Source: Nitrososphaeria archaeon
GTDB taxonomy: Archaea; Thermoproteota; Nitrososphaeria; JACIWG01
Length of the DNA: 64,000 bases
Reading direction: 5' to 3'
NCBI GenBank assembly: GCA_050011875.1
Contig: JBEKIG010000004.1
Span: 196,028 to 260,027, forward strand
Below, in pieces: positions 4,985-61,079 of the stretch. Position 1 is the first letter of the stretch; every line of letters starts with the position of its first letter. The notes beneath the pieces are model-generated. The model had not been told where the DNA came from and ran no database searches. It was given only the letters and a program-made list of their open reading frames with translations. The position numbers and the translations under genes were made by a program.

Positions 4985-6320
4985 GGAAAATCTAGAATTT
5001 GGACAGGGAAGCGGCCAGGCATCAAAGGAGGCTGTAGGCACTAAGAGAAATTCTAAATCGGTTATTAAAACGACTATCTTAGTATTTGCAACACTTGTCG
5101 TACTGAGTCTGCTTTTTTTCTACGTCGGTTCGAACTTGAGTCAAATTTTTTGGGGCAAATTTTTCATGTACTTATATTATCCGATATCAGGCATTATCAT
5201 TGTCGTTTATACAATAGAAATGTTTGGTCAGTTCTTTGAAGGCGATTTTGTTAAGGCCATATCCAACCATATAGAAGTCCCGGTTATGGTGGTCACCTTT
5301 ACGCTTACCCTGTTCAACCCCCAGATCGTGTTCCCCGACTCCTACAAGACTGCAGGGTATTTGATCATCGGCACAGTATTGGTTTGGGCCACCCACAGCA
5401 TAATAAAAACTTATTCGAAGATCGCGAGCACCTTCACGTTCGCAGCTCTACTCACAATCACCGGATATATGATAAAGACAATAATAGAATCCTATATGGG
5501 TTTAAATCTGGATCTACCTTTTTCACCCGGCAACATAGTTTTCTACTGCTTTCTAGCAACTGCTGCTCTATCATTGTTATCCTTCTTCAAATACTCCAGT
5601 AAAGACTACCTTTACTATATCGGAAACAAGCTGAGCAGCTACACCGTATTATTTGGCATAGGGGTTGTTGCATTCTTTGTTCAGGTATACCTGCTGTACA
5701 TCAGGCCTTCCTTTCCAGCATCGATTTCTCCGTATCTTTTAGTCGCCGAATGGACCGCTGTCTGCTGCATTTCATTCGCGGTCTTCAAGAGTGTGAGAGA
5801 CCATCTCTTGAGTGTCTCACAGACCTTGAAGTTTGGCGAATGGAGTGTGCTAACACAGAAGATAACCAACAAGAAGGAGGAACTAAACATTATGTCGGAC
5901 TTCATTGATGACGGAAAAAAGGAACGCCTGTTAATGCTAATCTCCCATATCCTTCTTTCCAACGACATCCCATATAAGATCGGTGAAGAAGCAATAGGAG
6001 AGCTTGTGCAATACCGCGACCCTGAACCTCCAAAGATCGTATCAAAGCGTATGGCTGGAGAAATGAGAGAAGAGAATAGAAGAAACAGGCAGAGGATACT
6101 GGAGAAGACGCTCAAAACCGTGGAAGATGTCATCAACAAAAACTATCTTTCGAATAACGATAGGCAATTCATAGAACCGGGTGAACTTCCGGATAGTTCC
6201 AATGTATTGAAAAGATGCAGCCAGTGTGGAAAGGAATATCCAGTAAGGTTTGGAGAGTGCCCATTTTGTTATGTAAGAAAGGCTTCCCCAAGAGTATATC
6301 TTCCTGAAGAATATATCTGA
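4968..6320 (+). CDS. Multi-pass membrane protein with C-terminal zinc ribbon
   Basis: About 8 TM segments and CSQC...CPFC. Start chosen at ATG 4968 to minimise overlap. Confidence 0.75.
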   Translation: MQEKIRENLEFGQGSGQASKEAVGTKRNSKSVIKTTILVFATLVVLSLLFFYVGSNLSQIFWGKFFMYLYYPISGIIIVVYTIEMFGQFFEGDFVKAISNHIEVPVMVVTFTLTLFNPQIVFPDSYKTAGYLIIGTVLVWATHSIIKTYSKIASTFTFAALLTITGYMIKTIIESYMGLNLDLPFSPGNIVFYCFLATAALSLLSFFKYSSKDYLYYIGNKLSSYTVLFGIGVVAFFVQVYLLYIRPSFPASISPYLLVAEWTAVCCISFAVFKSVRDHLLSVSQTLKFGEWSVLTQKITNKKEELNIMSDFIDDGKKERLLMLISHILLSNDIPYKIGEEAIGELVQYRDPEPPKIVSKRMAGEMREENRRNRQRILEKTLKTVEDVINKNYLSNNDRQFIEPGELPDSSNVLKRCSQCGKEYPVRFGECPFCYVRKASPRVYLPEEYI

Positions 6321-7335: not shown

Positions 7336-7870
7336 GATATCGCTGAAATAAACGAACAAAGAATTATGTATTTGCGGCCAACGAACCGTGAACCTCAGAC
7401 AATGTTGGCACCAAACGTCTTTTGTCTGGTATAGTTGACGATGAGCTTCCGGAAGGAAGCTGTACCAAGGTGACCTGGGATAGTTATTAAGGTAAAAGAA
7501 CGTACAAGTACCTAGTGCAAGATCGTCCTTGATAAGCACTCCAACTAGGATATTATACGGAATAATCCTTAAAAGTAAAGAAGATGTAGATAAAAAAACT
7601 GATAATATGGCTCAAGGTCTCCTACGAAGCTTCTTAATCATAAAGAAAGAAAGGAACTGGAAACGGCGTCTATGCTTCATCAGCAGTTAAGGAGATCTTC
7701 AGGGCTTTCATACAGGTCACAAAGTATTCATATCTCCCGTTTGGGCTTCGAGTTCCCTCTCCTTACTAAATTCATCTCCCAACTCATTTAGCCAAAATCT
7801 CGGCTGCGATTTTTCCTAAGTCAGATGTACCCCGATAAGGGCACATTACGCAAGGTCATAGAGCAGATGT

Positions 7871-8014
7871 ATGAGGTATTTTAAAAAGAATGATGATTTC
7901 ATCACATTATTCATCTGGATTATCGGAGTTGGTTCCGTAGTCGTACTTATCTGTGCGATAGCGTACTTCCTGTTATCGGTACGGGGCAAAAGGAGCTATT
8001 TCCTGAATTGGTAA
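7871..8014 (+). CDS. 47-aa single-TM small protein
   Basis: Manual translation: MRYFKKNDDFITLFIWIIGVGSVVVLICAIAYFLLSVRGKRSYFLNW*. Confidence 0.45.
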   Translation: MRYFKKNDDFITLFIWIIGVGSVVVLICAIAYFLLSVRGKRSYFLNW

Positions 8015-8148
8015 ACGGTCTTTTAGGTCGTTTCAAGTCCAAATTTACCTAAAAAAAATAGTGCAAAAACATACGATTTTTTTACCATGAAACGAGTCTG
8101 GCACGACGTCGCCGTGCCATTTACTAATGTGGTAAACGTAAGGGACAC

Positions 8149-8182
8149 ATAACCAGTTTGGTTATATAACCAGTTTGGTTAT
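8149..8182. repeat. Two tandem copies of the 17-bp palindrome ATAACCAGTTTGGTTAT
   Basis: Exact copies at 8149-8165 and 8166-8182, with arms ATAACCA/TGGTTAT. Confidence 0.95.
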
Positions 8183-8185
8183 ATC

Positions 8186-8386
8186 CTAAATATTGCCCTT
8201 TCGATATAAATCTTGTTTTAGATTCTTCAGCTCGTTCAAAGTAGTTAGAATGTTCTTTTGTATGGCATCCTGGTTCCCACACACCTGCTTGAACTGAGCC
8301 TTCTGATCAGCAAATAGAGCGTTCACTGTCTTGTTCTGCTCACTTATTGAAGCCAGAATCAGAAGCTCCAGCTCCCTATCGGACAA
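8186..8386 (-). CDS. 66-aa helical hypothetical protein
   Basis: ORF track; amphipathic/coiled-coil composition; TTG start. Confidence 0.5.
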   Translation of the reverse strand: MSDRELELLILASISEQNKTVNALFADQKAQFKQVCGNQDAIQKNILTTLNELKNLKQDLYRKGNI

Positions 8387-8407
8387 CTTTCCAAAAATTA
8401 AAACTGA

Positions 8408-8610
8408 TTGAGCAAAAAAATAATTTTAAATTTGGTTTGGCTCAACACGTTTTAAAACAAAATGCTAACGATAACTATTTCCCGTTGGCTCAACTTAAAT
8501 GCGTTCTGCATGAGAGCGATATGATGCACGATATTGCACAGGGACATCAGAACAGGGCCAGATGCAGAATGTTTATCGATAGCATTTCCGATTTTTTCTG
8601 TTTGAGCCGG
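8408..8610. repeat. ~204-nt structured repeat, copy A
   Basis: Aligns with 8941-9145. Shared blocks are TGCATGAGAGCGATATGATG and TAGCATTTCCGATTTTTTCTGTYTGAGCCGGA. Confidence 0.9.
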
Positions 8611-8650
8611 AATTAGCCCAGTATTATCTAATGATATTATATAATGATAT

Positions 8651-8675
8651 TTTATAATCCAATTTGGGTTATAAA
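8651..8675. repeat. Palindrome TTTATAATCCAATTTGGGTTATAAA
   Basis: 12-bp arms with one mismatch; core related to the 8149 and 9199 palindromes. Confidence 0.8.
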
Positions 8676-8689
8676 CATTAACCATTAAT

Positions 8690-8862
8690 GGTAATTTTGT
8701 TTTAAAGCGAACATTAAACGTTTTTTCATCCGGCCCCGTTGCAAACATTAACTATTTTAGGATAGTTTCTTCTTCTCGAACGTGTATCCCCTCATCTTCT
8801 ATTTCTTTATAGTCTCTTGACGCCAGCAGAACCCAGATATCTTCCATTGATTTCTCCTCCAT
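8690..8862 (-). pseudogene. Small ORF with in-frame TAG (MEEKSMEDIWVLLASRDYKEIEDEGIHVREEETILK*LMFATGPDEKTF...); 3' end uncertain
   Basis: Manual translation from ATG 8862. TAG at 8754-8752 is in frame with track ORF 8452..8748. Confidence 0.4.
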
Positions 8863-8940
8863 ATTTTATTATAATGGGATCCATAAAAGTGATAAAAGCA
8901 GGTCTTATGTCATCTGGTACATTTATCAATTTAAATTAAT

Positions 8941-9145
8941 TTGAGCCAAAGAACAATTTGCAATATTATGTTCGGCTCAAATCATTTTTAACAAAATTGC
9001 TAACGTTAACTTTTTCCTGTTAGCTCAACTTAATATCATCTTGCATGAGAGCGATATGATGTTCAATTGAGCTCTGAGGGATCATACCGAGCTAACAAGT
9101 AGAATATTTGGAGTTAGCATTTCCGATTTTTTCTGTCTGAGCCGG
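8941..9145. repeat. ~204-nt structured repeat, copy B
   Basis: Paralog of 8408-8610 at an offset of 533-535 bp. Confidence 0.9.
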
Positions 9146-9198
9146 ATTTAAAAATCTTAAAACGCACTGGCTCAATGCGTTTTTTTGTTCAGCTATTT

Positions 9199-9219
9199 AC
9201 TTAACCAATTTGGTAAAGT
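9199..9219. repeat. Palindrome ACTTAACCAATTTGGTAAAGT
   Basis: 10-bp arms with one mismatch; TAACCA-RTT-TGGT core. Confidence 0.8.
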
Positions 9220-9291
9220 TTCTTGGATGTTAGGTTGACTAAGTTCCCATATCATTGAAAAGTTTTAATGTAATTTTTGTGATTATTTTTA

Positions 9292-9690
9292 TTATTGTTT
9301 CAACTTCTCTATCACAGACTCAATCGTCTCTACGACTGTTGTTTCATTCCTCAAACCGAGTATAACAATCTTACCTGATGCATAAAGAAGGGTTGTAATA
9401 TTCTTATTAAGTTTAAAAATGGCACCTGGAAACTGTTCTGGTTCATAGATTACATTATCCAGCCTATTCGCTACTTTTTCAATGTCAATCATGCTCCCAA
9501 TATCTGCTAACACAACGATGTTTCTGACTTTAAAATTTGAAGGAATAACAATACTATTAATCACTCTATGGACCTTTAATATTTGAATACATCGATCCAA
9601 GTCATCCGAAGATTCAATAACACTTTTTGAACCAAAGAATTAATGAAAAAAGAATTAGAATACGACCCTTGGAGCAACTGATTTAACGTT
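9292..9690 (-). pseudogene. tbp: TATA-binding protein paralog, intact second repeat and decayed first repeat
   Basis: NIVVLAD...YEPEQFPGAIFK...LLYASGKIVILG. Upstream FGSKSVIESSDDL is in frame, preceded by a stop and a frameshifted KGRILI. Confidence 0.85.
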
Positions 9691-9919: not shown

Positions 9920-10189
9920 AAAAGATGTAATAGGGACTCGAACCCATTTAGGTATGAATCGCGCCTGGTCCACTCGATTGTTGGTATTACCTGAACCAGT
10001 TTAAGGCCTCGGCACCAGGGTGTTAACTGCTAAATAGTGTAGATTAGGGGTTTAAAGAGGGTTTAAACCGCTTGTCTTCCTGAGCTTGGAGTTATTTTAA
10101 CAGGATTTCCACCTTAATTAATTGGGGAATCGAACAAGGTAAGCTTGATCCAGCATCTATAGTAAGTACACACAGCAGACTGTTTACAT
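9920..10189 (-). ncRNA. Candidate structured non-coding element, copy 1 (conserved core 9976-10189)
   Basis: About 92% identical to 59337-59551, with several hairpins and no conserved ORF. The repeat is certain; RNA status is inferred. Confidence 0.6.
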
Positions 10190-11080: not shown

Positions 11081-12643
11081 TCAGTGAGACTGACTTTGGA
11101 CATCCACATCCTTTCTTATCCTGCTCTTTTCGATATCCAAACCATTCCATGTTATTGAATAGCCCAGAGCTTCGATTACCTGGTACGGTTCTTTTATGTT
11201 GTTTGCTTCAACAGCCTCCAACGCTTCAGAGAGCTTCTCTATCCCCATTAGACTAGTTTCTATTTTTTTTAGAACTGAGTCGGATATGAAGTAGTCACCA
11301 ACCCTCTTGTAGCCTTCGAAGGTTAGGGTTGAAAGAACCTTCCTGGCAGATTCGACACTAATCGAATTACCTCCTGCTATGTCTTCTATTTTTACTATAT
11401 CACCTGCCAATTTGATGTCCCTAAGCTTTGATGCATGAGACTCGTTTTCGATAACACCTTTCTCGCGCTCCTTTAAGTGTTCTATTATAGGCTTGATCGA
11501 CACATCATCCTTATAGTATACGACTTGGATTTTTAGGTCGCGGAGTCTAGAGCACGCGTACTTTTCATTCACTGCGACAATTAAGTCGACATCTTCCACC
11601 GTTTCAAGCTTTGCGATCTTTCTTTCAAGATAGTCTGGGGTCCAGAATCCAACGATCTCCAAGTACACCTTCATATTGTATTTCGTAAACCTGAAGTCAG
11701 GTATCAGCACATGTCTGCCCACAGGCAGAGGTTCAGGCTCTCTTTCGAGCACCCATCCGGAGCCGTAAGCGTTGAAGGTTTTGGCAAATCGTTCTTCAAC
11801 ACTGCTATCATATGTCTGTTTGGATGGTGTGTCTTCTGATCCAGTGCTCTCGATCAACCCCTTCATCTCATCGCTGGTAAGTTTGAATGTGTAGATTCTG
11901 TCTTTGTTCCTTCCCAGTACATCAGCTTTAATCCTCCAATAGCCCGATTCGATCACCGTTAGTAGAAGTTTCGCCAGCGCTGTTCCATATCTGTCGGTCA
12001 TTTTAAAGAGCGAAAGTGGGCCGTCGACAGTTACCTTATAACTATCGTCCTCACGTTCGACCGCATACATTAAGCCCAACCATTTAATAGATCTGAAGAT
12101 GCTCTTCCAATTTCCTGAAACTGTGAACTCCAGCTTTAGGGATCTAAAGAGCATTGTCTGCGTTATTGAAAGGTTGTAAGACTTCAACAACGCATCCGGC
12201 GATATTGGACTGAAGTCCTTTAGGATCAGTTCTTCTTCGACGTCGGAATATAGTACTTTTTCAAGAGCTTCAGCATGTATGCCAAGCTTCGCTGAGACTT
12301 CTTGGATAACTCTCCCCCTTTGCTCAACGTCCACTACTCTGACGTCGCTTGCCTTTTGGAACACCATCATCCTGGCTTCTGCGGGATCGATAGGCGCATC
12401 GGATTTAAACACACTTCGCCTTTCGAGAAGAGCGAACAACCCTCTTACGAACCTGTAATCGAAGCCTTCATCTTCAAGGGTTCTCAGCTTTTCCATCATC
12501 TCTCCCTTCCTTCTACCCACATTGTTTCTAAAGACTTCAATAACCCGTCCAGCGAAGTTCAAGTCGCCTTCTTCCAAATGCGCGTATACGGGGTTAACCT
12601 GCCCATGTGAAACTCTAACCCTTAGAAGGTCATATGCAAGCGT
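11081..12643 (-). CDS. bax1: Bax1 / DUF790 family endonuclease
   Basis: IPDF...YLEIVGFWTPDYL PD-(D/E)xK motif, and located downstream of XPB. The frame extends to an ACG at 12643 (xLAYDLLRVRV). Confidence 0.9.
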   Translation of the reverse strand, partial: TLAYDLLRVRVSHGQVNPVYAHLEEGDLNFAGRVIEVFRNNVGRRKGEMMEKLRTLEDEGFDYRFVRGLFALLERRSVFKSDAPIDPAEARMMVFQKASDVRVVDVEQRGRVIQEVSAKLGIHAEALEKVLYSDVEEELILKDFSPISPDALLKSYNLSITQTMLFRSLKLEFTVSGNWKSIFRSIKWLGLMYAVEREDDSYKVTVDGPLSLFKMTDRYGTALAKLLLTVIESGYWRIKADVLGRNKDRIYTFKLTSDEMKGLIESTGSEDTPSKQTYDSSVEERFAKTFNAYGSGWVLEREPEPLPVGRHVLIPDFRFTKYNMKVYLEIVGFWTPDYLERKIAKLETVEDVDLIVAVNEKYACSRLRDLKIQVVYYKDDVSIKPIIEHLKEREKGVIENESHASKLRDIKLAGDIVKIEDIAGGNSISVESARKVLSTLTFEGYKRVGDYFISDSVLKKIETSLMGIEKLSEALEAVEANNIKEPYQVIEALGYSITWNGLDIEKSRIRKDVDVQSQSH

Positions 12644-12662
12644 TATCCATCACCACTCAGTC

Positions 12663-14018
12663 TTAATCCTCCGTCATTCTGCTCCGTTTTCTTCTCCAAC
12701 TGGTCCGTGTTTCTGATGTCCCACTCGACACGATTTCTATCAGTTTGGCTTTTTTCCCTTCCCTCTTCCTCAGTAGTCTACCTAACCTCTGTATGAATTC
12801 TCTCGCGCTACCTGTGCCGCTTACTATGATCCCAAGGGACGCTTCAGGTACATCTATTCCCTCATCCAACACCTTAGAGGTTACTACCGCCCTGAACCTT
12901 CCATCTTTGAAACGCTTCAGTATTTCATGTCTCTCTTCTTTGTCAGACATATATGTTATGTAAGGGATAAGGAAACGCTTTGATATACGGTACACTAGGT
13001 CGTTATGTTGTGTGAAGATGAGTGTTCTGTCTTCAGGGTTTGATCTCAGTATATCCTCCAAGGCTTTGATCTTAGATTCTGAGTTGAGGGCTATGTCCTG
13101 CGCTCGATTTCTAGCGAGTAGCGCCTGTCTAGCGTTTCTGTCTCTCGCCGTAAGCATGATAAACTTCCTAAATTCATCAGGCGAAGTGATTCTTATCTTC
13201 CCACTTGATAGGTAGTCAGAGAACACCCTCCAGTTCCTTCCATATTCTTCCTTCTCTTCATCTGTAAGTTCAACGCTTATTCTATGGAGAGTATACGTTG
13301 AGAGATACCTTCCTGTAAGATCTTCCGGCTTTCTCCTGTACACGACGCCTCCCGTTAACCTCGGCAGCTCTTTATGGAGCATGTCCTCCCTTTCATAGGT
13401 CGCCGTCAAGCCCATCCTATAAGGAGCTGTGAACATTTCCGCGATCAACCTGTAACCTTCAGCCGCTAAATGGTGAACTTCATCAAAAATAATGAGGCTG
13501 AACCTGTTGCCTATCTCACCCGCCTTAAGATATGCGGAGTCGTAGGTGGAAACCGTTAGAGAGCCAATCCGAGTGTCTCCTCCTCCGTAAACTCCAATTT
13601 CGATCCCGAATTCCGCTTCAAGCCTGCTTCTCCACTGCTCTACCAGATCTAGAGTTGGCACGATAACTATTGACGACTGGTCAACGAGTTCGATGGCCTT
13701 GATGGCTATGACAGTTTTTCCAGAACCCGTAGGAAGCACTATTATCCCCTTCCTCCCACCTTTATCCCAAGCTTCCAACGCATCTTCTTGATAGTCCCTT
13801 AAGTGGATCCCGCTTCTCAAGTTCGGCGATGGCACAAGGTTTTGGACGGTGTCGCTAAAAGTCATCCTACTGTTCCTAAGATATTCGACTATTTCTTGAT
13901 AATATAGCGCTTGAGCCCTAAAAGCTCTAACTCTGTCGTCCCATACGGCGTACGGTATTCTAACATCCCCTCTGACCAGTATGCTACCTCTATCAAAGGA
14001 TAGGACCACAGGCTGCAA
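12663..14018 (-). CDS. xpb: XPB-family SF2 DNA repair helicase
   Basis: LPTGSGKT, DEVHH, GLTAT and QRLGRLLR motifs. Start is probably TTG 14018 or GTG 14009 rather than 14105. Confidence 0.92.
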   Translation of the reverse strand: MQPVVLSFDRGSILVRGDVRIPYAVWDDRVRAFRAQALYYQEIVEYLRNSRMTFSDTVQNLVPSPNLRSGIHLRDYQEDALEAWDKGGRKGIIVLPTGSGKTVIAIKAIELVDQSSIVIVPTLDLVEQWRSRLEAEFGIEIGVYGGGDTRIGSLTVSTYDSAYLKAGEIGNRFSLIIFDEVHHLAAEGYRLIAEMFTAPYRMGLTATYEREDMLHKELPRLTGGVVYRRKPEDLTGRYLSTYTLHRISVELTDEEKEEYGRNWRVFSDYLSSGKIRITSPDEFRKFIMLTARDRNARQALLARNRAQDIALNSESKIKALEDILRSNPEDRTLIFTQHNDLVYRISKRFLIPYITYMSDKEERHEILKRFKDGRFRAVVTSKVLDEGIDVPEASLGIIVSGTGSAREFIQRLGRLLRKREGKKAKLIEIVSSGTSETRTSWRRKRSRMTED

Positions 14019-14256
14019 CGGTAAACCACAAGCCATCCGGTGTTCGGCGTTTACAGCGTATAAAGTTATATAAACAATCGGAATGAATTCACTTAATCTG
14101 TACATTCATTGCGCCATATCAAGAGAGAATGTCGAAAAAGATCTGGCAAAAAACAAGTTTGGAAAGATGCAGATTAAGGGAATGTTAACGGAATTGCACC
14201 AGCTTGTTCTAATAACGCATCTTTAGACGAGTATATCACAAAGCATTTGCTGGGCT

Positions 14257-16655: not shown

Positions 16656-17510
16656 ATGTCATACCAGCCTAGCATAAGATCACCCCGTGGTCCACGACGT
16701 GGAATGTCGCGACGTGAGAAGACCGAGGCCAAGACTAAGAGAAAGAAACATCGATCTAGCGGTAGCAAAATGTGGGAGGAGAATCAAGCAACGACCTCAG
16801 AAGAGGTTATAGACAGAACTCTTAACATGATACACAGTCTAGGAAGACAGAAATTTGGACTACCACCTTTTAGCGATCACTTTAGCCGCTGGCTTATTAA
16901 TCTAAGAGGCATCGTATCCGAGTTTGAGTCAAGTAAAGCAAGTGTGGATGATCAATTCTTGAAAGAAAGTTCTCAAATACTCTCGAATATTGAGCTTGAA
17001 CTCGAAAAAGGAAGGCAGCAGGAAGCTTCTTGTCGGGAGGTCATCAAAAATCTCTCGAACTACAGGATTCTTCTTGAACAAATCAAAGAAGAGTATGCCA
17101 CCAAGGCCAAAGAGATAGAGGGGCGGAAAGAGAGTCAAATCAAACGTTTATCCAGCAATATAGACGATTTAAGAGAAGAACTGACCTACATTTCTCGATT
17201 GAAAACTGGCATCTTCAGAGCTCTCACGGTTAAAGCTAAGGCGCAAAAAGAGGCGGAAGCGACTCAGAGACTTAATTCAGCTGAAAAGGAGCTAGAATCA
17301 GCTGTGAAAAATTTTTCTTTAGAGCAAAAAAACCTATTAGACGAATACGAAAAAAGGAAACAGCCAATTATCGAACAGATACAAAACCAAGAGAAGGAGA
17401 TCGAAAACCAAGAGGTTGACAGCTCAATAGAAGCTAGAGGAATCGCATGCGAAGCTCTTGTAAATACAGTGAACGCACTTGTTCAGAGAAAAAGATCAAT
17501 GGTTCATTAA
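16656..17510 (+). CDS. Coiled-coil hypothetical protein
   Basis: 284 aa with E/K/Q-rich heptads and a basic N-terminus. Confidence 0.75.
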   Translation: MSYQPSIRSPRGPRRGMSRREKTEAKTKRKKHRSSGSKMWEENQATTSEEVIDRTLNMIHSLGRQKFGLPPFSDHFSRWLINLRGIVSEFESSKASVDDQFLKESSQILSNIELELEKGRQQEASCREVIKNLSNYRILLEQIKEEYATKAKEIEGRKESQIKRLSSNIDDLREELTYISRLKTGIFRALTVKAKAQKEAEATQRLNSAEKELESAVKNFSLEQKNLLDEYEKRKQPIIEQIQNQEKEIENQEVDSSIEARGIACEALVNTVNALVQRKRSMVH

Positions 17511-17669
17511 ACTGTCCCTCAAGAAGATGTTCTCTCGCAGTCATAGGAAAGAGAAGTTGAACTTGCATCAAATTGATGCATCGTTCACGTTGCATGCCCT
17601 CTTGCAATCCCATAAAAAAAGGGTTTAAAAAAAAAGGTTTAAATATAATTTTTCCCGATGCCATAAATT

Positions 17670-54627: not shown

Positions 54628-55446
54628 GTGATTCTATACATGGTCAAAAAGATTCTTTATGATGAAATGAGCTGGCCTGAAACTAAGGAAACTGTAAAGC
54701 AGGATCGGATTCCGCTTATACCTGTTGGCTCAACCGAGCAACACGGGCCTCATCTACCTACAAAGACGGACGCTTTTTTAGCCTATGAAGTTTGTAAGTC
54801 TGTGGCAAAAAAGGTACCGGACATTGCTGTGGTTATGCCCACCGTGAATTATGGCTACAACGAACATCATTTGGACTTTCCAGCTACAATACACATAGAT
54901 TATGAAACGCTTATCAGGTTTGTGATAGACATCGGCAAAAGTCTGGGACATCATGGATTCAAACGCATAGTAATAGTAAACGGGCATGGTAGCAACCAGG
55001 CACCCATGGAAATAGCTGCAAGGAGAATAACTCTGGAGACAAAGGCGATCTGTGCTTCGCTTTCATATTTTGCTATCGCCCCTGAGGCTTACAAGCTTTT
55101 GAAAGGCGAATCAGCGCACGCCTGTGACCTTGAAACTTCGATGATGCTCTACCTTTCTCCAGAATCCGTCGACATGAGCAAGGCGGTGAGGGACTGGAGC
55201 TTCCAAAAATCCAAGTTCATTAAATATGGAGTAGAACCAGGTGGCGAATCTTTTGCTGCAGCCGGTGGTACTGTTCAGTTTATGGACTGGTGGAGCAGGA
55301 TGAGCAGGACGGGGATAGTTGGGGACCCTACAAAGGCGGATGCCCAAAGGGGAAAAGAAATGTTCGAGGCCTTTGTAGACAAGACGGCGGAGTTCGTCGC
55401 AGAATTCAGGAGAAGACGGATACCTCCGAGAAAGGACTATCACTGA
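54628..55446 (+). CDS. Creatininase family amidohydrolase
   Basis: GSTEQHGPHLP, NGHGSN and HACDLETS motifs. Confidence 0.93.
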   Translation: MILYMVKKILYDEMSWPETKETVKQDRIPLIPVGSTEQHGPHLPTKTDAFLAYEVCKSVAKKVPDIAVVMPTVNYGYNEHHLDFPATIHIDYETLIRFVIDIGKSLGHHGFKRIVIVNGHGSNQAPMEIAARRITLETKAICASLSYFAIAPEAYKLLKGESAHACDLETSMMLYLSPESVDMSKAVRDWSFQKSKFIKYGVEPGGESFAAAGGTVQFMDWWSRMSRTGIVGDPTKADAQRGKEMFEAFVDKTAEFVAEFRRRRIPPRKDYH

Positions 55447-55651
55447 TCTTTCGAAATTAAAATATACCTTAGTTTTTCTTTCAAAATTTTGCACAGAACT
55501 GGAAACTGAACTAAAATCCTCCAAAAAATCTCAGGTTGATGATAAACTGATGGTAACTCAAAAAATTCTGTATTTTATTTATAATAGAAGTGTGCGTGAT
55601 TAAAGTTTAGCATCGACCCAGTACACTTGTTTCCACTGGAAAAACCCAACA

Positions 55652-56026
55652 TTAATTTGATTCATGCCTGAGCTTTGGGATCAATCGTGGGGTTCGTTGC
55701 ATGTATTCACGATACTTGTCGCCGAACCTATCGATCAGCATAAGCTCCTCCTTACCTATCTGCGCGTAGATAATCGTGATCAGGACAAGGGCCGGCAAAA
55801 GGAGAAGCCAATTGGAGGCCACAAGAGCGAGGGCTACTATGAAGGTGAAGGACCCCAAGTAAATCGGATTCCTAACATAGTGGTACGGCCCGCTCGTCAC
55901 CAGTGTCTCCCTCTTCCTCTCCAAGAACTTCGACGATTCCAGGACATGTACCCAATTCTTACCAAGCGTCCGATAACCCCAGAGTGTGAATGGAATGCTC
56001 AGAGCGGATACGCCGACCATAATTAA
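55652..56026 (-). pseudogene. ICMT/PEMT-family methyltransferase, 3' half of an interrupted gene
   Basis: LGKNW, LVTSGPYHYVRNPIYLG and EELMLIDRFGDKYREY motifs; N-terminus missing here. Confidence 0.9.
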
Positions 56027-56181
56027 TGACAACTATTTTGATATTGGTTATTCCTGGAATCGTATGTATTTTACTAGGTCTATTTTATGACAATGGAGGA
56101 TTTAGTTTTTCTAATAATCTTTAATAATTATTGTTTCATAGATATTTGTAAATTTAGATCGTTCTAAAGTTTAAAAAGAAT

Positions 56182-57234
56182 CTAAACTTTCCCTCCAAGA
56201 GATAAAGGTCGTGCCAAGGTTTTCAAGTCTAGTTGCTTGTCATACAAGTCAAGAAAACGTTTAACAGGCTGTTCATGTCCACGATATTTCTTAGCAACCT
56301 TCAAAAAATCTTTCGCCTGCCATTTTGGTCTTAAGAAAAGGTCACGGAAGTACTGTATTCCGATATCAGCTACTATTGAATAAGCCATGCTAAGAGGAAT
56401 CGAACCTCCAGAAAGTAAATAAACAATTATCCCAAGAAGCCCGTTATAAAAAGCATGTGGACCGTATTTCTTTAGGGGTGACCGCCTCTCTTGCTGTGCT
56501 ACTCGGTAAGCAGCAGAGAAATCAACGAAATTTGGCCAAGATCTTGCCCGTTCCTCGCACCAATTTGCCATCTCGATTTGAATATCCTGTAATCTCTCAG
56601 CTTGTTCTTTTAGGTGAATGCTACTCCTCTCAGAAGGTTTTTCAGAAACTGTTCTAAAGTTACCCCCAATGTTCTGGACAAGCTTATTTATTTTTTTAAA
56701 AATATCAAACAGTTTGATATTCTGTTGATCTGCTATTTTTAATTGTTTAATATATCCTTCTTCAATTAACGTTTTGGGGTTGGGGTAGACACAATTTCTG
56801 CTAACATCAACTATTTTACTAACGTAATTAATGTAGGTGTCAAAAAGTTCGAATAGTCTAGGTGGATAGAAAGGGGTAAGATAAATGTTCAACCAAACAA
56901 TCGTTGTCTTAAAGATTCGTGTGTATAATCTTGCATCAAAAGGGATAGTCCTTGCCTTGGAATCCATAACGCTGAACCCCTCAACGATATCTCCCAAGGT
57001 TCTAGCTTTGAGATATAAAGAAGGAATTATGGGAGTTAAGAGATATAAAGGTAAGTTCATTAAGTTAAATTTCCAATATTTAAAGTTAGGATAGTAAAAT
57101 GCAACAAAATATTCCTTATTTTCAATCTCAATAGGCCCGTAAACGTTAATATGTTCATGACTAGTTTTCAATAAAGATGCCTCGTCTTGGAATACCCTAT
57201 CCATTACTATGCCTCCCAAACGTCTAACTTTCAT
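56182..57234 (-). CDS. 350-aa hypothetical protein with C-terminal hydrophobic hairpin
   Basis: Long ORF with its own TATA box (TATAAATA about 35 nt upstream). Confidence 0.75.
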   Translation of the reverse strand: MKVRRLGGIVMDRVFQDEASLLKTSHEHINVYGPIEIENKEYFVAFYYPNFKYWKFNLMNLPLYLLTPIIPSLYLKARTLGDIVEGFSVMDSKARTIPFDARLYTRIFKTTIVWLNIYLTPFYPPRLFELFDTYINYVSKIVDVSRNCVYPNPKTLIEEGYIKQLKIADQQNIKLFDIFKKINKLVQNIGGNFRTVSEKPSERSSIHLKEQAERLQDIQIEMANWCEERARSWPNFVDFSAAYRVAQQERRSPLKKYGPHAFYNGLLGIIVYLLSGGSIPLSMAYSIVADIGIQYFRDLFLRPKWQAKDFLKVAKKYRGHEQPVKRFLDLYDKQLDLKTLARPLSLGGKV

Positions 57235-57452
57235 CGACTAGGTCAAAGATAATTTCTCTTTAGACAACTATTTATAGTGTTTCTGCCTAAGTTACTTGTC
57301 AAATAAGAAGCCCTTGTTTCGTTAATCCAATAATCGAAAAGTCTATTTGACACGTTCGATGGTTTACATATTCCAATTTAATATCAGATAATATACGAAA
57401 ATGGTTATTTGTTTTTCTGAATCTACTTATTTTGGCTTGGAAAATTATAAAA

Positions 57453-57902
57453 TTAAAGATGATGATAAATTGTCATGATCGAATCTGGTCCATTAAATTC
57501 CACTATCCATTTTTTCATGATTTCCAATCCTATTAAACCATGATCAAGATTTCCCTGAAAACAAATGGCAGCTTCTATGCCCGAGGATGGGGCAATCCAA
57601 TCATCGATTTTGACTATATTTCCAAAACAATAAGTGGCGGAAACTGTTTGACCTGTCGCTACCTTGATATTGGTTGGTGAAAGCCTAACTCCTATTTGTA
57701 GAGGTTCACTTTTATATTGGAAAGGCATGGAAATAGCACCACTATAACCAGTATCAAGCATACATTTAATAGGGATAGAAATTGTTTGTGCATTTTGAGG
57801 ATTAACCATTTTTATTGTGATTCTAACATAATACCCTTTTCTTTCTCCTTTTTTCTTCAGAACAAGCTCCCTTCTATTAATACCAGCCGTCAAAGTAATC
57901 AC
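57453..57902 (-). CDS. Retropepsin-like (clan AA) aspartyl protease
   Basis: MLDTGYSG catalytic motif, ATG flap-like segment and GLIGLE hydrophobic-hydrophobic-Gly motif. Confidence 0.85.
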   Translation of the reverse strand: MITLTAGINRRELVLKKKGERKGYYVRITIKMVNPQNAQTISIPIKCMLDTGYSGAISMPFQYKSEPLQIGVRLSPTNIKVATGQTVSATYCFGNIVKIDDWIAPSSGIEAAICFQGNLDHGLIGLEIMKKWIVEFNGPDSIMTIYHHL

Positions 57903-58398
57903 TACCCACTTTCCATATAAATATTGATAACGATTGTGGGATCATCTGAATTTTTTTCAGTAGATCGACTTTTGTCGGGGCTACTTCTATTACTTGGCCT
58001 TTGAAATTGAATGCTACAAATAACCCATCTTGGAGTTTAAAATGTTGTATTGCATGTTTAGCTATCGATCGCATTAAGTATGTAAAATCCCTCTCTGATA
58101 ATTCCTTTTTATCACGTAGTTTCAAAGTTGATGGCGGAAGATATGGAAAAGGGGTTGGATCAAAGAAGAATTTGATTTCATCTTGTTCTTGGATTAGAGT
58201 AAAATGTTGTTTTCCAGCTCTTGAAAGTGAGGTGTCATGTATGAAAGGATCAGGTTTTTCAAATTCGACTAGTTCGTGTCCTATTTGAGAGACGGCCGAC
58301 GTTTTTTCTATATAACCCTGATAGTAGTCCCTTGTATGATTGCCTACTATTATCTTTTCATTAGGTTGAGTGCTTGCACTAGGTAATAAGCTACTCAA
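57877..58398 (-). CDS. Hypothetical protein with DUF5678-like C-terminal domain
   Basis: GLFVAFNFKGQVIEVAPT...IFIWKVG pattern; overlaps the protease gene. Confidence 0.6.
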   Translation of the reverse strand: MSSLLPSASTQPNEKIIVGNHTRDYYQGYIEKTSAVSQIGHELVEFEKPDPFIHDTSLSRAGKQHFTLIQEQDEIKFFFDPTPFPYLPPSTLKLRDKKELSERDFTYLMRSIAKHAIQHFKLQDGLFVAFNFKGQVIEVAPTKVDLLKKIQMIPQSLSIFIWKVGSDYFDGWY

Positions 58399-59059
58399 GT
58401 TTCATGACCTCAATAATATTCTTAATCAATTCCTTATCTTGTGAAACCCATTTATCCACTTTATCTTTCTCTTTACTTCTAAAAACTACGTTGCAAGCAA
58501 ATTTATTTGGTTGAAGAACATCTGGATATACATCTATATTAAACCATTCTATCTGATTAGGCATAGCATTCTTTGGGCAGAACTTTAAACCGAATAGTTG
58601 AGTAGGAATTGATAGTATATTTTCTATTTTCTGATTGAAAATTATCATATTTGTTAAAAGACCAAACTGTTTTATTGCACTTTCTGTTGCCTGGATTCCA
58701 TAAGAACCTATAGATTCATAAAATTTTACATTGGATTTTAGATTGACTTGAATTTGCTTTTCTACAATGTCAATCAATTCATTAAATGCTTCAACTATCC
58801 TTTCTGAAGATGAACCCTCCAAACCTAATTGGTTATTGATTGTTTCTATATTAACTACAAACTCATTCTTTCTGGCAAAATAACCACTCGCTTGAAAATG
58901 AGCTGGTCGAGGTGGAAGGGATTTTGTAAGGGGTTCAATTTGATAGCCATTTTTTGCAAGAACTTCTCGAAAGTCTCTGATATCTATTGGGAAAAAGACA
59001 TCGTTTGTTACAATAGCTAAAGAAATGTTGTATGTAACTACTAATGGTGAAGTTAACAT
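58391..59059 (-). CDS. Hypothetical alpha/beta protein heading the protease module
   Basis: About 222 aa from ATG 59059; 8-nt overlap with the next gene. Confidence 0.75.
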   Translation of the reverse strand: MLTSPLVVTYNISLAIVTNDVFFPIDIRDFREVLAKNGYQIEPLTKSLPPRPAHFQASGYFARKNEFVVNIETINNQLGLEGSSSERIVEAFNELIDIVEKQIQVNLKSNVKFYESIGSYGIQATESAIKQFGLLTNMIIFNQKIENILSIPTQLFGLKFCPKNAMPNQIEWFNIDVYPDVLQPNKFACNVVFRSKEKDKVDKWVSQDKELIKNIIEVMKLE

Positions 59060-59302
59060 AGTATCCCAACTAAATTCATAATTAATAATTGCCAATTTAA
59101 AAATATTTTCTTTTTCTTCTCACAAGTAGAATTTAAGGAGTTGCATACCCGTTCAGATACAAATCCCGGACGCCGCATTGACTTTGGCGTTATGTGCTAA
59201 AATCATGCTTAATTTATTATTAATTATAATATCCAGATGTCTTTTTTTGGCGTTATGATTTGCCAATGACAAAGGCCTTTTCATTATCTAAAAGAAATTT
59301 GG

Positions 59303-59551
59303 AAAAAATAACAGATCCAAATAGCTGAGCCAGCTTGATTGTTGGTGTTACCTGAACCAGTTTAAGGCCTCGGCACCAGGGTGTTAACTGCAAAATAGTG
59401 CAGGTTAAGGGTTTAAAGAGGGTTTAAACCACCTTGTCTGCCTGAGCTTGGAGTTATTTTAACAGGATTTCCACCTTAATTAATTGGGGAATCGAACAAG
59501 GTAGGCCTGATCCAGCATTTATAGCAAGTGCAGACAGCAAATTTTGAACAT
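59303..59551 (-). ncRNA. Candidate structured non-coding element, copy 2 (conserved core 59337-59551)
   Basis: Same orientation as, and about 92% identical to, 9976-10189; ends in a minus-strand U-tract. Confidence 0.6.
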
Positions 59552-59613
59552 AAGGCATAAAAAAGACGCAAATAATTAATTAAAAAAATAATTAACAGTC
59601 AACTATAGGTTTG

Positions 59614-59871
59614 TTTGAACTAATCAGGCAAAGGAATCGAGAGAAACATAATCCAACTCGGAATTATGATGTAGAGTATTATCCCTCCAAACCAGAAGAG
59701 AGCAAACAGGGCAAGGGCTACGATATGCAACCGACTTTCACGTCGAACCGTCTGGTCAATCGATGGTTTACTCTTCGGCTCCCTTAATGAGTACATTACC
59801 CATGTTATATTAACAATGAAGATAAACCACAGAGTCGAGAAGATAACCCTGAAAAGCAGCTCGTTCGTCAT
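59614..59871 (-). pseudogene. ICMT/PEMT-family methyltransferase, 5' half
   Basis: MTNELLFRVIF...FLSIPLPD*FK, with two TM helices; TAG at 59622-59620. Confidence 0.8.
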
Positions 59872-59881
59872 TGTGGCAGCC

Positions 59882-60277
59882 TTAATCATTATCAGTTTTT
59901 CGTTTGAAATGTGCTAATGAATAGCAAAGTAAATTTGACGCTAGTTCATCGTATTTCTTGCATTGAGCCTTTAACTCATTTAATCCAGCAGGTTCAAAGC
60001 CATAGATCTTGCAATCTCGTTCTAACTGTTGATATTTTACCCAAGCCCTTTCACTTTCTGAAATCTGAAAATCCGTGACCTTATTAAGATCCTCTATTGC
60101 AGAATCTAGTGCGTTCCGATCTGCACCAGTAGAGGATTCATTATGGCTGACTTTTAGTTCTAGCCTGTTCATCTTCTCCTTAATTTTTTCTACAGACCTC
60201 AGGGCCTTCATGTAACTTTTCCTGATGTCTCTCACTTCTTTGTCAATTTGGCTTTGAATCTTGACAACTTCTTGCAA
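59882..60277 (-). CDS. Coiled-coil hypothetical protein
   Basis: 131 aa, helical composition. Confidence 0.6.
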   Translation of the reverse strand: MQEVVKIQSQIDKEVRDIRKSYMKALRSVEKIKEKMNRLELKVSHNESSTGADRNALDSAIEDLNKVTDFQISESERAWVKYQQLERDCKIYGFEPAGLNELKAQCKKYDELASNLLCYSLAHFKRKTDND

Positions 60278-60383
60278 ATCTTTTCTTTCCTTCTATCCAA
60301 TTATTGTTCACAGATTATTTTAGTTTTCCTAAATTTCGAAAACTATTTAATCTTATGAAGTGTCGATAACTTGATGGATAAAT

Positions 60384-61079
60384 ATGGAAGCTACATCTTT
60401 TATGGTCGAGTTTCCGAGCCGAGAGATCGGTAGAAAAACCCGGGGTTTTTTGGCGAGACCGAAGGAAGCTGGAAGGCATCCTGCAGTCATAGTGATTCAT
60501 GAGATATGGGGTCTAGTTGACAATATTAAGGATATAAGTAATAGACTTGCCGCCGAGGGCTACGTAGCCCTTGCTGTCGACCTATTTGACGGTGAAACTG
60601 TTTCAAAATTAGAAGAGGGTCGCAAAATACGCGAAAAGTTTACAGAAGAGAAGATTCTAGGAGACCTAAACGGTGGATACGACTATCTCAAAACTCTCAA
60701 CTATGTGAGCCCCACGCGAATAGGCAGTGTCGGTTTCTGCATGGGAGGTGGGCTTTCACTTCTATCTGCCTGCCTCAATAAAGAACTGGCGGCCTCAGTT
60801 GTATTTTATGGTAGGAACCCTTCACCTATTGATTTAGTGAAGAACATAAAGTGCCCGATCTTAGGTAATTATGCAGGAGCCGATTTGGGTATAACAGAAT
60901 CAGATATTAAGCTATTAGAACAGACTCTAACTAAATATGGAAAGACATTCGACATCAAAGTCTACCCAGGTGCTCCACACGGCTTCTTTAACGACACTAG
61001 AGAAAGTTATAGACCTGATGCTGCCAAAGACGCTTGGAACAGAACCCTTAAGTTTTTCAGCAAATATCTGAATATCTAA
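60384..61079 (+). CDS. Dienelactone hydrolase family protein
   Basis: HEIWG, GFCMGG and PHGF motifs. Confidence 0.93.
   Translation: MEATSFMVEFPSREIGRKTRGFLARPKEAGRHPAVIVIHEIWGLVDNIKDISNRLAAEGYVALAVDLFDGETVSKLEEGRKIREKFTEEKILGDLNGGYDYLKTLNYVSPTRIGSVGFCMGGGLSLLSACLNKELAASVVFYGRNPSPIDLVKNIKCPILGNYAGADLGITESDIKLLEQTLTKYGKTFDIKVYPGAPHGFFNDTRESYRPDAAKDAWNRTLKFFSKYLNI

Follow-up and report, generated by a model that had tools for sequence, protein, structure and literature searches.

A 3.6-kb AT-rich insert splits a membrane methyltransferase gene in a peat Nitrososphaeria archaeon

An AT-rich insert has inactivated an ICMT/PEMT-family gene

We analyzed a 64,000-nucleotide stretch of DNA (the window) that corresponds to positions 196028 to 260027 of contig C4 in the metagenome-assembled genome (MAG) of a Nitrososphaeria archaeon (2.64 Mb, 119 contigs, 97% complete). 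Within it, a gene of the ICMT/PEMT family is a pseudogene, interrupted by a 3,587-bp insert and by a TAG at codon 84 (Table 1). This membrane methyltransferase gene of a peat Bathyarchaeia-type archaeon was inactivated when foreign, AT-rich DNA inserted into it, an event that is recent and fixed. The predicted truncated product stops after residue 83, and the part that matches the Pfam PEMT/ICMT models is left without a start of its own. Our favored reading, to which we assign a probability of about 0.4, sees the insert as an integrative islet, non-autonomous or decayed, that recombined into the gene through short homology, with a tyrosine integrase acting on a look-alike site as the favored variant.

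The two halves are parts of one ICMT/PEMT-family gene that is collinear with its intact orthologues. On the minus strand, the 5' part ends at 59614 with the codons CCT GAT TAG TTC AAA; the 3' part restarts at 56026 as TTA ATT ATG GTC and runs to a stop at 55652. The open reading frame (ORF) of the 5' part is 89 aa long (59889-59620) and ends in SIPLPD before TAG TTC AAA, and the start of the orthologues corresponds to the ATG at 59871. The 3' part matches Pfam PEMT (PF04191; E value of 7.4e-13, 49.3 bits, cutoff of 25) and ICMT (PF04140; E value of 2e-9, 38.2 bits, cutoff of 24), and the 5' part (89 aa) searched alone has no Pfam match. A search for longer relatives of the 3' part retrieved 41 proteins, the best being 222 to 250 aa long and at most 87% identical. 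In protein alignments, the 5' ORF is 80% identical to the N termini of nine intact orthologues, and the 3' part is 84 to 87% identical to the C-terminal two thirds of the intact proteins.

The position of the break is fixed to the base by these orthologues. All of those aligned (9/9) read PLPDW(F/I)RLIM across it, where the window reads PLPD-stop-FK on one side and LIM on the other; at the DNA level, the orthologue loci read GAT TGG TTC (C/A)GG TTA ATY ATG. In tblastx against locus L019, window position 59614 lies opposite base 6258 and window position 56026 opposite base 6259, and compared with the orthologues no host base was lost or gained at the insertion. The joined halves give 210 codons with a single internal stop, at a position that is Trp in 9/9 orthologue proteins and in 6/7 orthologue loci at the DNA level (the seventh, L024, is frameshifted). 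A preliminary description of this DNA had proposed a gene split by a 3.6-kb insertion between AAA and TTA, a joined reading of about 210 codons of the type SIPLPD-stop-FKLIMVGV, and a TAG that was probably formerly TGG. Each of these proposals agrees with the orthologues, with which both halves are collinear; neither half hits a different family.

Because both halves still share 82 to 89% ungapped DNA identity with loci L019 to L022, we take the gene to be otherwise undamaged and the insertion to be recent. The 5' part shares 76 to 88% ungapped identity with L019 to L023. The two gene halves have a G+C content of 42 to 50%, and the insert stands at 34.1% versus 40.8% for the genome. The closest orthologues come from Candidatus Bathyarchaeota and Nitrososphaerota MAGs, and in the seven orthologue loci the gene neighborhoods have nothing in common with the window except the gene itself. 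The sister species G001 has no close orthologue (best match, 37% identical); thus, it offers no empty site at the same locus. Next to the 5' part lies a 131-aa coiled-coil-like ORF (59882-60277, minus strand), whose last 8 nt overlap the methyltransferase ORF in its longest reading; no family matches it above cutoff, and the orthologues have no counterpart beside them.

Table 1. Coordinates of the split gene, its insert, and related repeats in the window
Feature	Position	Strand	Basis or remark
5' part of ICMT/PEMT-family gene	59614..59871	-	Codons 1-86; TAG at 59622-59620 replaces Trp; orthologue alignment
3' part of ICMT/PEMT-family gene	55652..56026	-	Codons 87-210 and stop; Pfam PEMT/ICMT, orthologues
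Insert	56027..59613		3,587 bp, 34.1% G+C; limits set by orthologue continuity
Non-coding left module (LM), genus-specific dispersed repeat	59140..59613	-	About 475 nt; BLAST against own genome and G001
Left copy of imperfect direct repeat, ATAGTTGACTGTTAATTAT	59588..59606	-	Wholly inside insert
Right copy of direct repeat, ATAGTTGTCATTAATTAT	56019..56036	-	Spans right junction; last 8 nt are host codons L-I-M
AACTA, left copy of 5-bp candidate duplication (TAGTT on gene strand)	59618..59622	+	Other copy at 56031-56035
234-aa ORF	58391..59095	-	Function unassigned; no family match above cutoff
173-aa ORF	57877..58398	-	No family match
149-aa ORF	57453..57902	-	DTGYSG motif
350-aa ORF	56182..57234	-	Small archaeal family; AlphaFold model
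57-nt piece	56120..56176	-	Directly after stop of last ORF; also on contig C10
Second copy of repeat core in window	9973..10189	-	93% identical to 59334-59539

Independent contigs support the insertion

The stretch is held by four public runs (X1 to X4), all of them peat metagenomes, of which X1 and X2 are possible source samples; assembled contigs (Logan), not reads, were compared. Contigs of X1 and X2 span 55000-59236 and 59474-60500. X3, which comes from another sample and study, contributes a 343-nt contig over 59556-59898 and five more pieces that map to the insert or to the 3' half of the gene, all with 0 differences; those contigs of X1 to X3 that bridge the junctions likewise show 0 differences. 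In X4, a 233-nt contig differs at one position over 59570-59778, and a 60-kb metagenome contig is identical to the window across 59000-59700. The contig depth of the insert equals that of its flanks, at 9.8 in X1 and 45.2 in X2.

A chimeric join at a repeat is the assembly artefact that might mimic such an insertion, and the genome does offer the material for it: the left module (LM) of the insert is repeated about six times, and two of its copies stand at contig ends. We consider the chance of this next to negligible, as the contigs of X1, X2, X3, and X4 and the 60-kb contig agree independently and the right junction sits in unique sequence. With contigs of three or four public peat runs bridging the junctions, the insert is not a misassembly. 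One 623-nt contig of X4 (depth of 138.6) differs from the window by about 10% and jumps from 56023 to 59617 with six other letters between; it is the intact gene of a relative (about 90% identical), not an empty site of the same strain.

The junctions carry neither inverted repeats nor an exact duplication

The preliminary description had offered a 5-bp AACTA duplication as an alternative junction. On the gene strand, one copy of TAGTT lies in the host flank (59622-59618) and the other among the final bases of the insert (56035-56031). Extended to 9 nt, the candidate duplications TAGTTCAAA and TAGTTGTCA agree at 6/9 positions, and only TAGTT is exact. The frame is kept with either length, as had been stated for the 5-bp version, but either would need an ancestral gene that differed from the orthologues at 5/9 bases; for the 5-bp version, the ancestor would have read D-stop-LS versus DWFR in the orthologues. 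The plain junction needs three differences (TGG to TAG, AGG to AAA). By a hand estimate that deserves little weight, three or more differences in nine bases have a chance of about 0.1 at the divergence of this gene. The 5-bp duplication is indistinguishable from chance, and we found no exact target-site duplication at the insert ends beyond these five nucleotides.

Terminal inverted repeats are likewise missing, in keeping with the earlier observation. The first 80 nt of the insert and the reverse complement of the last 80 nt align with a score of 19, which 364 of 3,779 random pairs equal, and there is no terminal pair among the 25 longest inverted pairs listed. DNA folds of both ends on both strands revealed no end hairpins (z of +0.72 to +1.35; 150 to 188 of 200 shuffles as stable).

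What the ends do share is an imperfect direct repeat. The left copy, ATAGTTGACTGTTAATTAT, sits 8 nt inside the left end, and both it and the right copy, ATAGTTGTCATTAATTAT, are preceded by TCAAA. These 18- to 19-nt repeats align with a local score of 22; among 4,718 random pairs of insert windows, 86 scored as high, as did 61 of 5,000 shuffles. The right copy has TTAATTAT in common with the target. When the first 39 nt of the insert were compared with the orthologue genes, the best match in four of five was GTTAATYAT, exactly at the insertion site.

Neither a group I/II intron nor an intein accounts for the interruption. Over 55900-59750, no relevant Rfam match appeared at an E value of 5 or below; the one hit was a chance-level snoRNA (E value of 4.7, 20.7 bits versus a gathering threshold of 42). 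No in-frame ORF runs through the insert, as the frame closes at the junction with the TAG and then with a TGA 18 nt on.

The precision of the break, with the frame kept and the gene undamaged but for one stop, is what a programmed excisable element would leave, that is, one whose excision restores the methyltransferase gene. Such gene-interrupting elements include skin in Bacillus sigK and the nifD and fdxN elements of cyanobacteria, which resemble our case in that a gene is precisely split by several kilobases and the remainder is kept. However, those elements encode a recombinase and restore an open gene. The insert has no recombinase gene, and the in-frame TAG at codon 84 would persist after excision at any candidate joint. 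The depth of the insert equals that of the flanks, and no same-strain contig in the four runs skips it, although this last evidence is weak, given that contigs hide rare forms. We therefore judge programmed excision highly improbable.

The lack of inverted repeats, of an exact duplication, and of a transposase within the insert is also shared with IS200/IS605 elements and their non-autonomous derivatives, the palindrome-associated transposable elements (PATEs). A non-autonomous element of this type could have been moved as single-stranded DNA by the TnpA of the genome and placed next to a TCAAA target; TCAAA does occur at the left flank and close to the right end. The genome holds one Y1 TnpA (137.7 bits) and four TnpB genes, some of them on the same contig as the insert. 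Several features nevertheless make this origin very unlikely. There are no subterminal hairpins, and the ends fold less stably than shuffled sequences (z of +0.7 to +1.35). By inspection and by BLAST of the insert against the genome, the ends do not resemble the ~110-nt repeats found at the right ends of resident IS copies. At the right junction, 9 to 10 bases between the inner TCAAA and the host are unexplained by the mechanism, and a 3-kb cargo of four genes would be unusual. Outside the window, one TnpA gene and two TnpB genes form an IS200/IS605 cluster at C4:1-4100; the ~110-nt repeats that follow these TnpB genes recur on contigs C3, C11, C14, and C18.

A genus-specific left module recurs with different cargo

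LM occupies the gene-sense 5' end of the insert, from 59613/59605 down to 59140. Nine further copies or fragments exist, five elsewhere in this genome and four in G001, and these two genomes are the only ones with LM among the 41 related genomes searched. BLAST against the own genome aligned 59140-59468 with C10:447-120 and C14:448-118, 59292-59490 with C15:60724-60529, 59334-59539 with C4:206000-206204, and 59423-59525 with contig C11. The preliminary description had singled out a 215-nt repeat and ascribed near base-level ends to the element that carries it. Its two copies in the window were confirmed; the repeat (59334-59551) is only the core of the ~475-nt module. The claim about ends does not hold, since the LM copies lack common limits on either side and so do not fix the ends of an element. 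The copy on G001 contig C3, alike from 59605 to 59291, is the only one that comes as close as about 8 nt to the left junction. A single break recurs, at 59140/59139; past CGGGTATGCAAC, the sequences of C10, C14, and the window diverge, and loose contig ends occur at the same point.

Contig C10 bears the closest counterpart to the whole arrangement. There, LM precedes another cargo, a 510-aa ORF in the opposite orientation, after which comes the 57-nt piece (C10:2288-2344, 84% identical). In the insert, this piece sits 93 nt inside the right junction, and C10 is the only LM copy that resembles the insert near its right end. The LM copy of the insert is 97 to 99% like the C15 copy and, as estimated by eye from the alignment, is closer to it than the C15 copy is to that on G001 contig C19. 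As the C15 and G001:C19 copies stand at orthologous loci, LM is older than the split of the two species.

We surveyed the neighborhoods of the LM copies by running Pfam on 52 neighboring ORFs. The neighbors include an Eco57I/MmeI-type (type IIG restriction-modification) enzyme, a pentapeptide-TIR protein with a Vsr-Dcm pair, and TaqI_C and HSDR_N restriction-enzyme fragments. At one locus in G001, a tyrosine integrase pseudogene in two pieces lies about 250 nt from LM, with a tRNA-Cys gene between them; the order is integrase, tRNA-Cys (5895-5968), the motif ATAGTTAACTGTTATTTTTTGATTA, and LM. A variant, ATAGTTGACTGTTAATTATTTTTTT, is found at the left end of the insert, and nine copies of a related motif, ATAGTTAACTGTTATTTTTTTGA, occur in the genome within three mismatches of a 20-nt core. 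Counting these and the insert variant, 2/10 lie within 1.5 kb and 5/10 within 9 kb of one of the 11 integrase-like loci found by tblastn. Copies of ATAGTTAACTGTTATTTTTTTGA on C2, C3, C16, C26, and C1 have flanks that differ on both sides, and a related form stands just upstream of the integrase gene on C6. The motif in G001 (locus L120, 5991-6016) is 22 nt from the 5' end of the tRNA-Cys gene.

The genome is rich in mosaic repeats, including integrase fragments, and islands differ between species at shared sites. Between LonB and LysE, G001 has a 2.45-kb island that extends from 90 nt before LM to the end of a copy of a second repeat family; the same site in this genome holds 5.3 kb of other DNA. 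This site (L119, 6661-9110, versus C2:36214-41485) is a hot spot with different islands in the two species, and its flanks, CTCTCA and TGAGAG, are inverted copies of each other that, with the site empty, would fold into a hairpin. The second repeat family (window 7866-9238, C4:203894-205265) is about 200 to 850 nt long, with at least 12 copies on C2, C7, C10, C11, C14, C15, C16, and C22; the window interval includes the repeats at 8430-8615 and 8965-9150. In C15, C14, C4, and G001:C3, the family flanks the 215-nt module always on one side, either immediately or separated from it by a variable ORF. C-terminal fragments of an M48 peptidase (L117, 6150-6520; L121, 6640-6915), with cut points that differ by species, stand directly before orthologous LM copies.

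Other identities for the repeat were tried and rejected. A structured RNA was sought with Rfam, which gave no match at gathering level over the window and nothing relevant at E values of up to 5 or 10 around both repeat copies. RNAalifold on 10 copies (minus strand) gave -13.9 kcal/mol with a covariation term of +1.57 and 1/26 pairs compensatory, hence no covariation; the copies are 88 to 99% alike, so the power of this test is low. A tRNA remnant finds no backing either, as ARAGORN reported no tRNA in the window and only the tRNA-Cys of L120 among 11 copy loci, and a T-arm-like stretch beside copy A of the repeat has no tRNA match. A 19-nt inverted pair (59239-59257 and 59549-59567) brackets the core in the manner of a miniature inverted-repeat transposable element, but the copies extend beyond both arms. 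Two small ORFs of LM (46 and 43 aa) are broken in C10 by a 1-nt indel or a stop. No viral contig holds the 21-nt core word of the repeat, and four metagenome loci that do are contigs of the same organism rather than independent copies. Literature listings and abstract openings retrieved for Bathyarchaeia mobile elements and integrases and for DUF5678 show no description of LM.

The element at the end of LM (window 59130-59178) also occurs alone, at C2:109658-109696, C6:11292-11341, C9:86824-86870, and C11:9446-9480. It holds the palindrome ATACCCGAACGGGTAT in C6 and ATATCCGAACGGATAT in C10, with both arms changed, and may be a protein-binding site. On C11 (~17300-17600; L118 from ~6300 onward), an LM fragment continues into a tandem array with a unit like CTTTACCAAAGCCTTTATGAGT.

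How the insert may have entered

According to our favored reading, the insert would be a member of a genus-specific pool of integrative islets, either non-autonomous or decayed. Each islet would combine the common ~475-nt non-coding left module with a cargo that varies, and in two cases the cargo is followed by a short piece that both have in common. Entry would proceed by recombination that relies on short sequence likeness: the imperfect end repeats follow the scheme TCAAA..ATAGTTGWC..TTAATTAT, and their outer parts match the target (TCA on the left, TTAATTAT on the right). The enzyme would be a tyrosine integrase, either acting in trans or formerly present and now lost, that recognized a similar site within the gene. 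For movement, the cargo would be dispensable; it may be transcribed from AT-rich, TATA-like boxes in LM, at about 59580 and 59520. We favor the integrase because of the clean junction, the resemblance between the insert ends, the module-cargo-tail unit of C10, and the motif beside integrase loci and a tRNA gene.

Elements of archaeal tyrosine integrases include the SSV-type and pTN3-type elements and tRNA-targeting islands. The insert is like them in being a multi-kilobase AT-rich segment with direct repeats at its ends and an element site that resembles the target, and one related LM copy stands beside a tRNA-Cys gene and an integrase pseudogene. It is unlike them in that it has no integrase, lies in a protein-coding gene rather than a tRNA gene, has imperfect end repeats, and has a left junction 17 to 18 bases beyond a simple core crossover.

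A number of observations weigh against an integrase-mediated islet. No recombinase or integrase was found in the insert or nearby on its contig, and 0/6 LM copies of this genome share a contig with an integrase-like locus. The end direct repeats contain a 7-nt indel and two to three substitutions, and at a P value of about 0.01 to 0.02 they are modestly above chance. The target-match score is ordinary, being reached by 252 of 2,000 shuffles for the best orthologue and by about 1,900 of 2,000 for the others. Moreover, the same 8 nt underlie both tests, so that neither is independent of the other. A single crossover in TTAATTAT accounts for the right junction but not for the left, where the 17 to 18 extra element bases resemble a second copy of the arm of the element. 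Not only do the LM copies start and stop at differing places on both sides, but the conserved pieces of LM are subterminal, and the boundary of the LonB-LysE island in G001 lies 90 nt outside the start of likeness to the left end in the window. A second copy of the insert was not found anywhere, and repeated movement is thus without support. Finally, the contigs of the four runs, which hide rare forms, contain no empty site or circle of the same strain.

Illegitimate capture would dispense with a dedicated recombinase and with a defined element: microhomology-mediated end joining, in repairing a break in the gene, would have taken up linear or broken DNA from an islet, a plasmid, or a virus. 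This alternative, which we hold to be possible if rather unlikely, explains the mosaic ends and the missing recombinase equally well as the integrase does. Short sequence is shared at both junctions (TCA(AA) on the left, TTAATTAT on the right), and inverted repeats, an exact duplication, and a mobility gene are all lacking. Mosaic LM copies with different ends are expected from promiscuous recombination of islands, and two of the three G-to-A differences before the junction (AGG versus AAA) would be element derived and need no mutation. End joining usually costs or adds bases, however, and here the net change is 0, or 2 if the AA belongs to the element. Random capture also does not predict the resemblance between the insert ends, and the same left module and tail around a different cargo on C10 suggest a recurrent unit.

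Cargo of the insert

The insert carries four ORFs on the strand of the gene (234, 173, 149, and 350 aa), followed by 155 nt at 23% G+C. All four are single copy in the genome. None matches a transposase, integrase, or other mobility family in Pfam, PHROGs, PADLOC, or NCBIfam, in agreement with the earlier statement that the insert has no recognizable mobility gene. The Pfam scan, run at an E value of 0.1 or below, gave nothing above cutoff, and the other three collections gave only sub-threshold rows.

The 234-aa ORF has one homologue (46% identity) and in the Atlas is grouped with clusters of archaeal hypothetical proteins; a TBP-like fold with a template modeling (TM) score of 0.54 is a weak lead. 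Kinship with the half-TBP ORF beside copy A of the repeat was rejected (BLASTP E value of 1.3). For the 173-aa ORF, the Atlas gives weak leads to DUF5678 (score of 0.77, TM score of 0.36). The 149-aa ORF is possibly a retropepsin-like (clan AA) aspartic protease, judging from its DTGYSG motif; it matches NCBIfam TIGR03698 at an E value of 0.0048 with 17.2 bits, far below the cutoff of 57.35. Its single-sequence structure model is unusable (predicted local distance difference test [pLDDT] score of 31), and its sequence matched only chance antibody entries in the PDB. DUF5678 genes often neighbor such aspartic proteases.

The 350-aa ORF belongs to a small archaeal family with 18 representatives at an E value of 0.001 or below among 1.84 billion; those members that have names are hypothetical proteins from MAGs of Nitrososphaerota and Bathyarchaeota. 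The family turned up in none of 400 other genomes searched in the class and in none of 400 searched in the phylum. The AlphaFold model (pLDDT score of 82) predicts a small beta domain followed by a long helical bundle, and at an E value of 0.001 or below it had no match in the PDB.

Integron gene cassettes, which have been reported also in Archaea, bear comparison with this arrangement: promoter-less or leader-linked variable cargo stands by a conserved, recombination-type module, and the cargo differs between copies. The end of LM, ATGCAAC, is one position off the integron consensus RYYYAAC. Unlike integrons, the insert lacks an array and a nearby IntI, and no imperfect palindrome of the attC type separates its four ORFs.

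Other features of the window

A 102-aa ORF on the minus strand (9292-9600), just downstream of the second repeat copy, contains a single TBP repeat (Pfam TBP, E value of 1.5e-20) and may be either a half-size paralogue or a gene fragment. Elsewhere in the genome, on C1 and C91, there are two full TBP genes with two repeats each. Adjacent ORFs of 498 and 480 aa (11081-14105, minus strand) look by eye like a Bax1-like nuclease and an XPB-type helicase.

Implications for archaeal mobile DNA

The mobile DNA of Bathyarchaeia and related soil archaea is scarcely described. The case presented here documents well that foreign DNA, of an origin we could not classify, has inactivated a gene; we see in it a gene-disrupting islet for which entry through an integrase is our tentative preference. 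An insertion inside a conserved gene yields junctions at base level, which intergenic islands never do. In this genus, variable regions are marked by mosaic non-coding modules that belong to a common pool.

A bolder proposal, which we find doubtful, is that LM, a variable cargo, and a short tail make up an undescribed family of archaeal non-autonomous cargo cassettes. Each cassette would have its own leader and promoter and a recombination motif (an AGTTRACTG palindrome with a T-run), would enter look-alike sites, genes included, without inverted repeats or duplication, and would be moved in trans by the coiled-coil tyrosine integrases of the genus, spreading defense-type genes and genes of unassigned function between islands. 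If the module family were such a discrete, trans-mobilized cassette, it would constitute an additional route of cargo exchange among archaeal islands.

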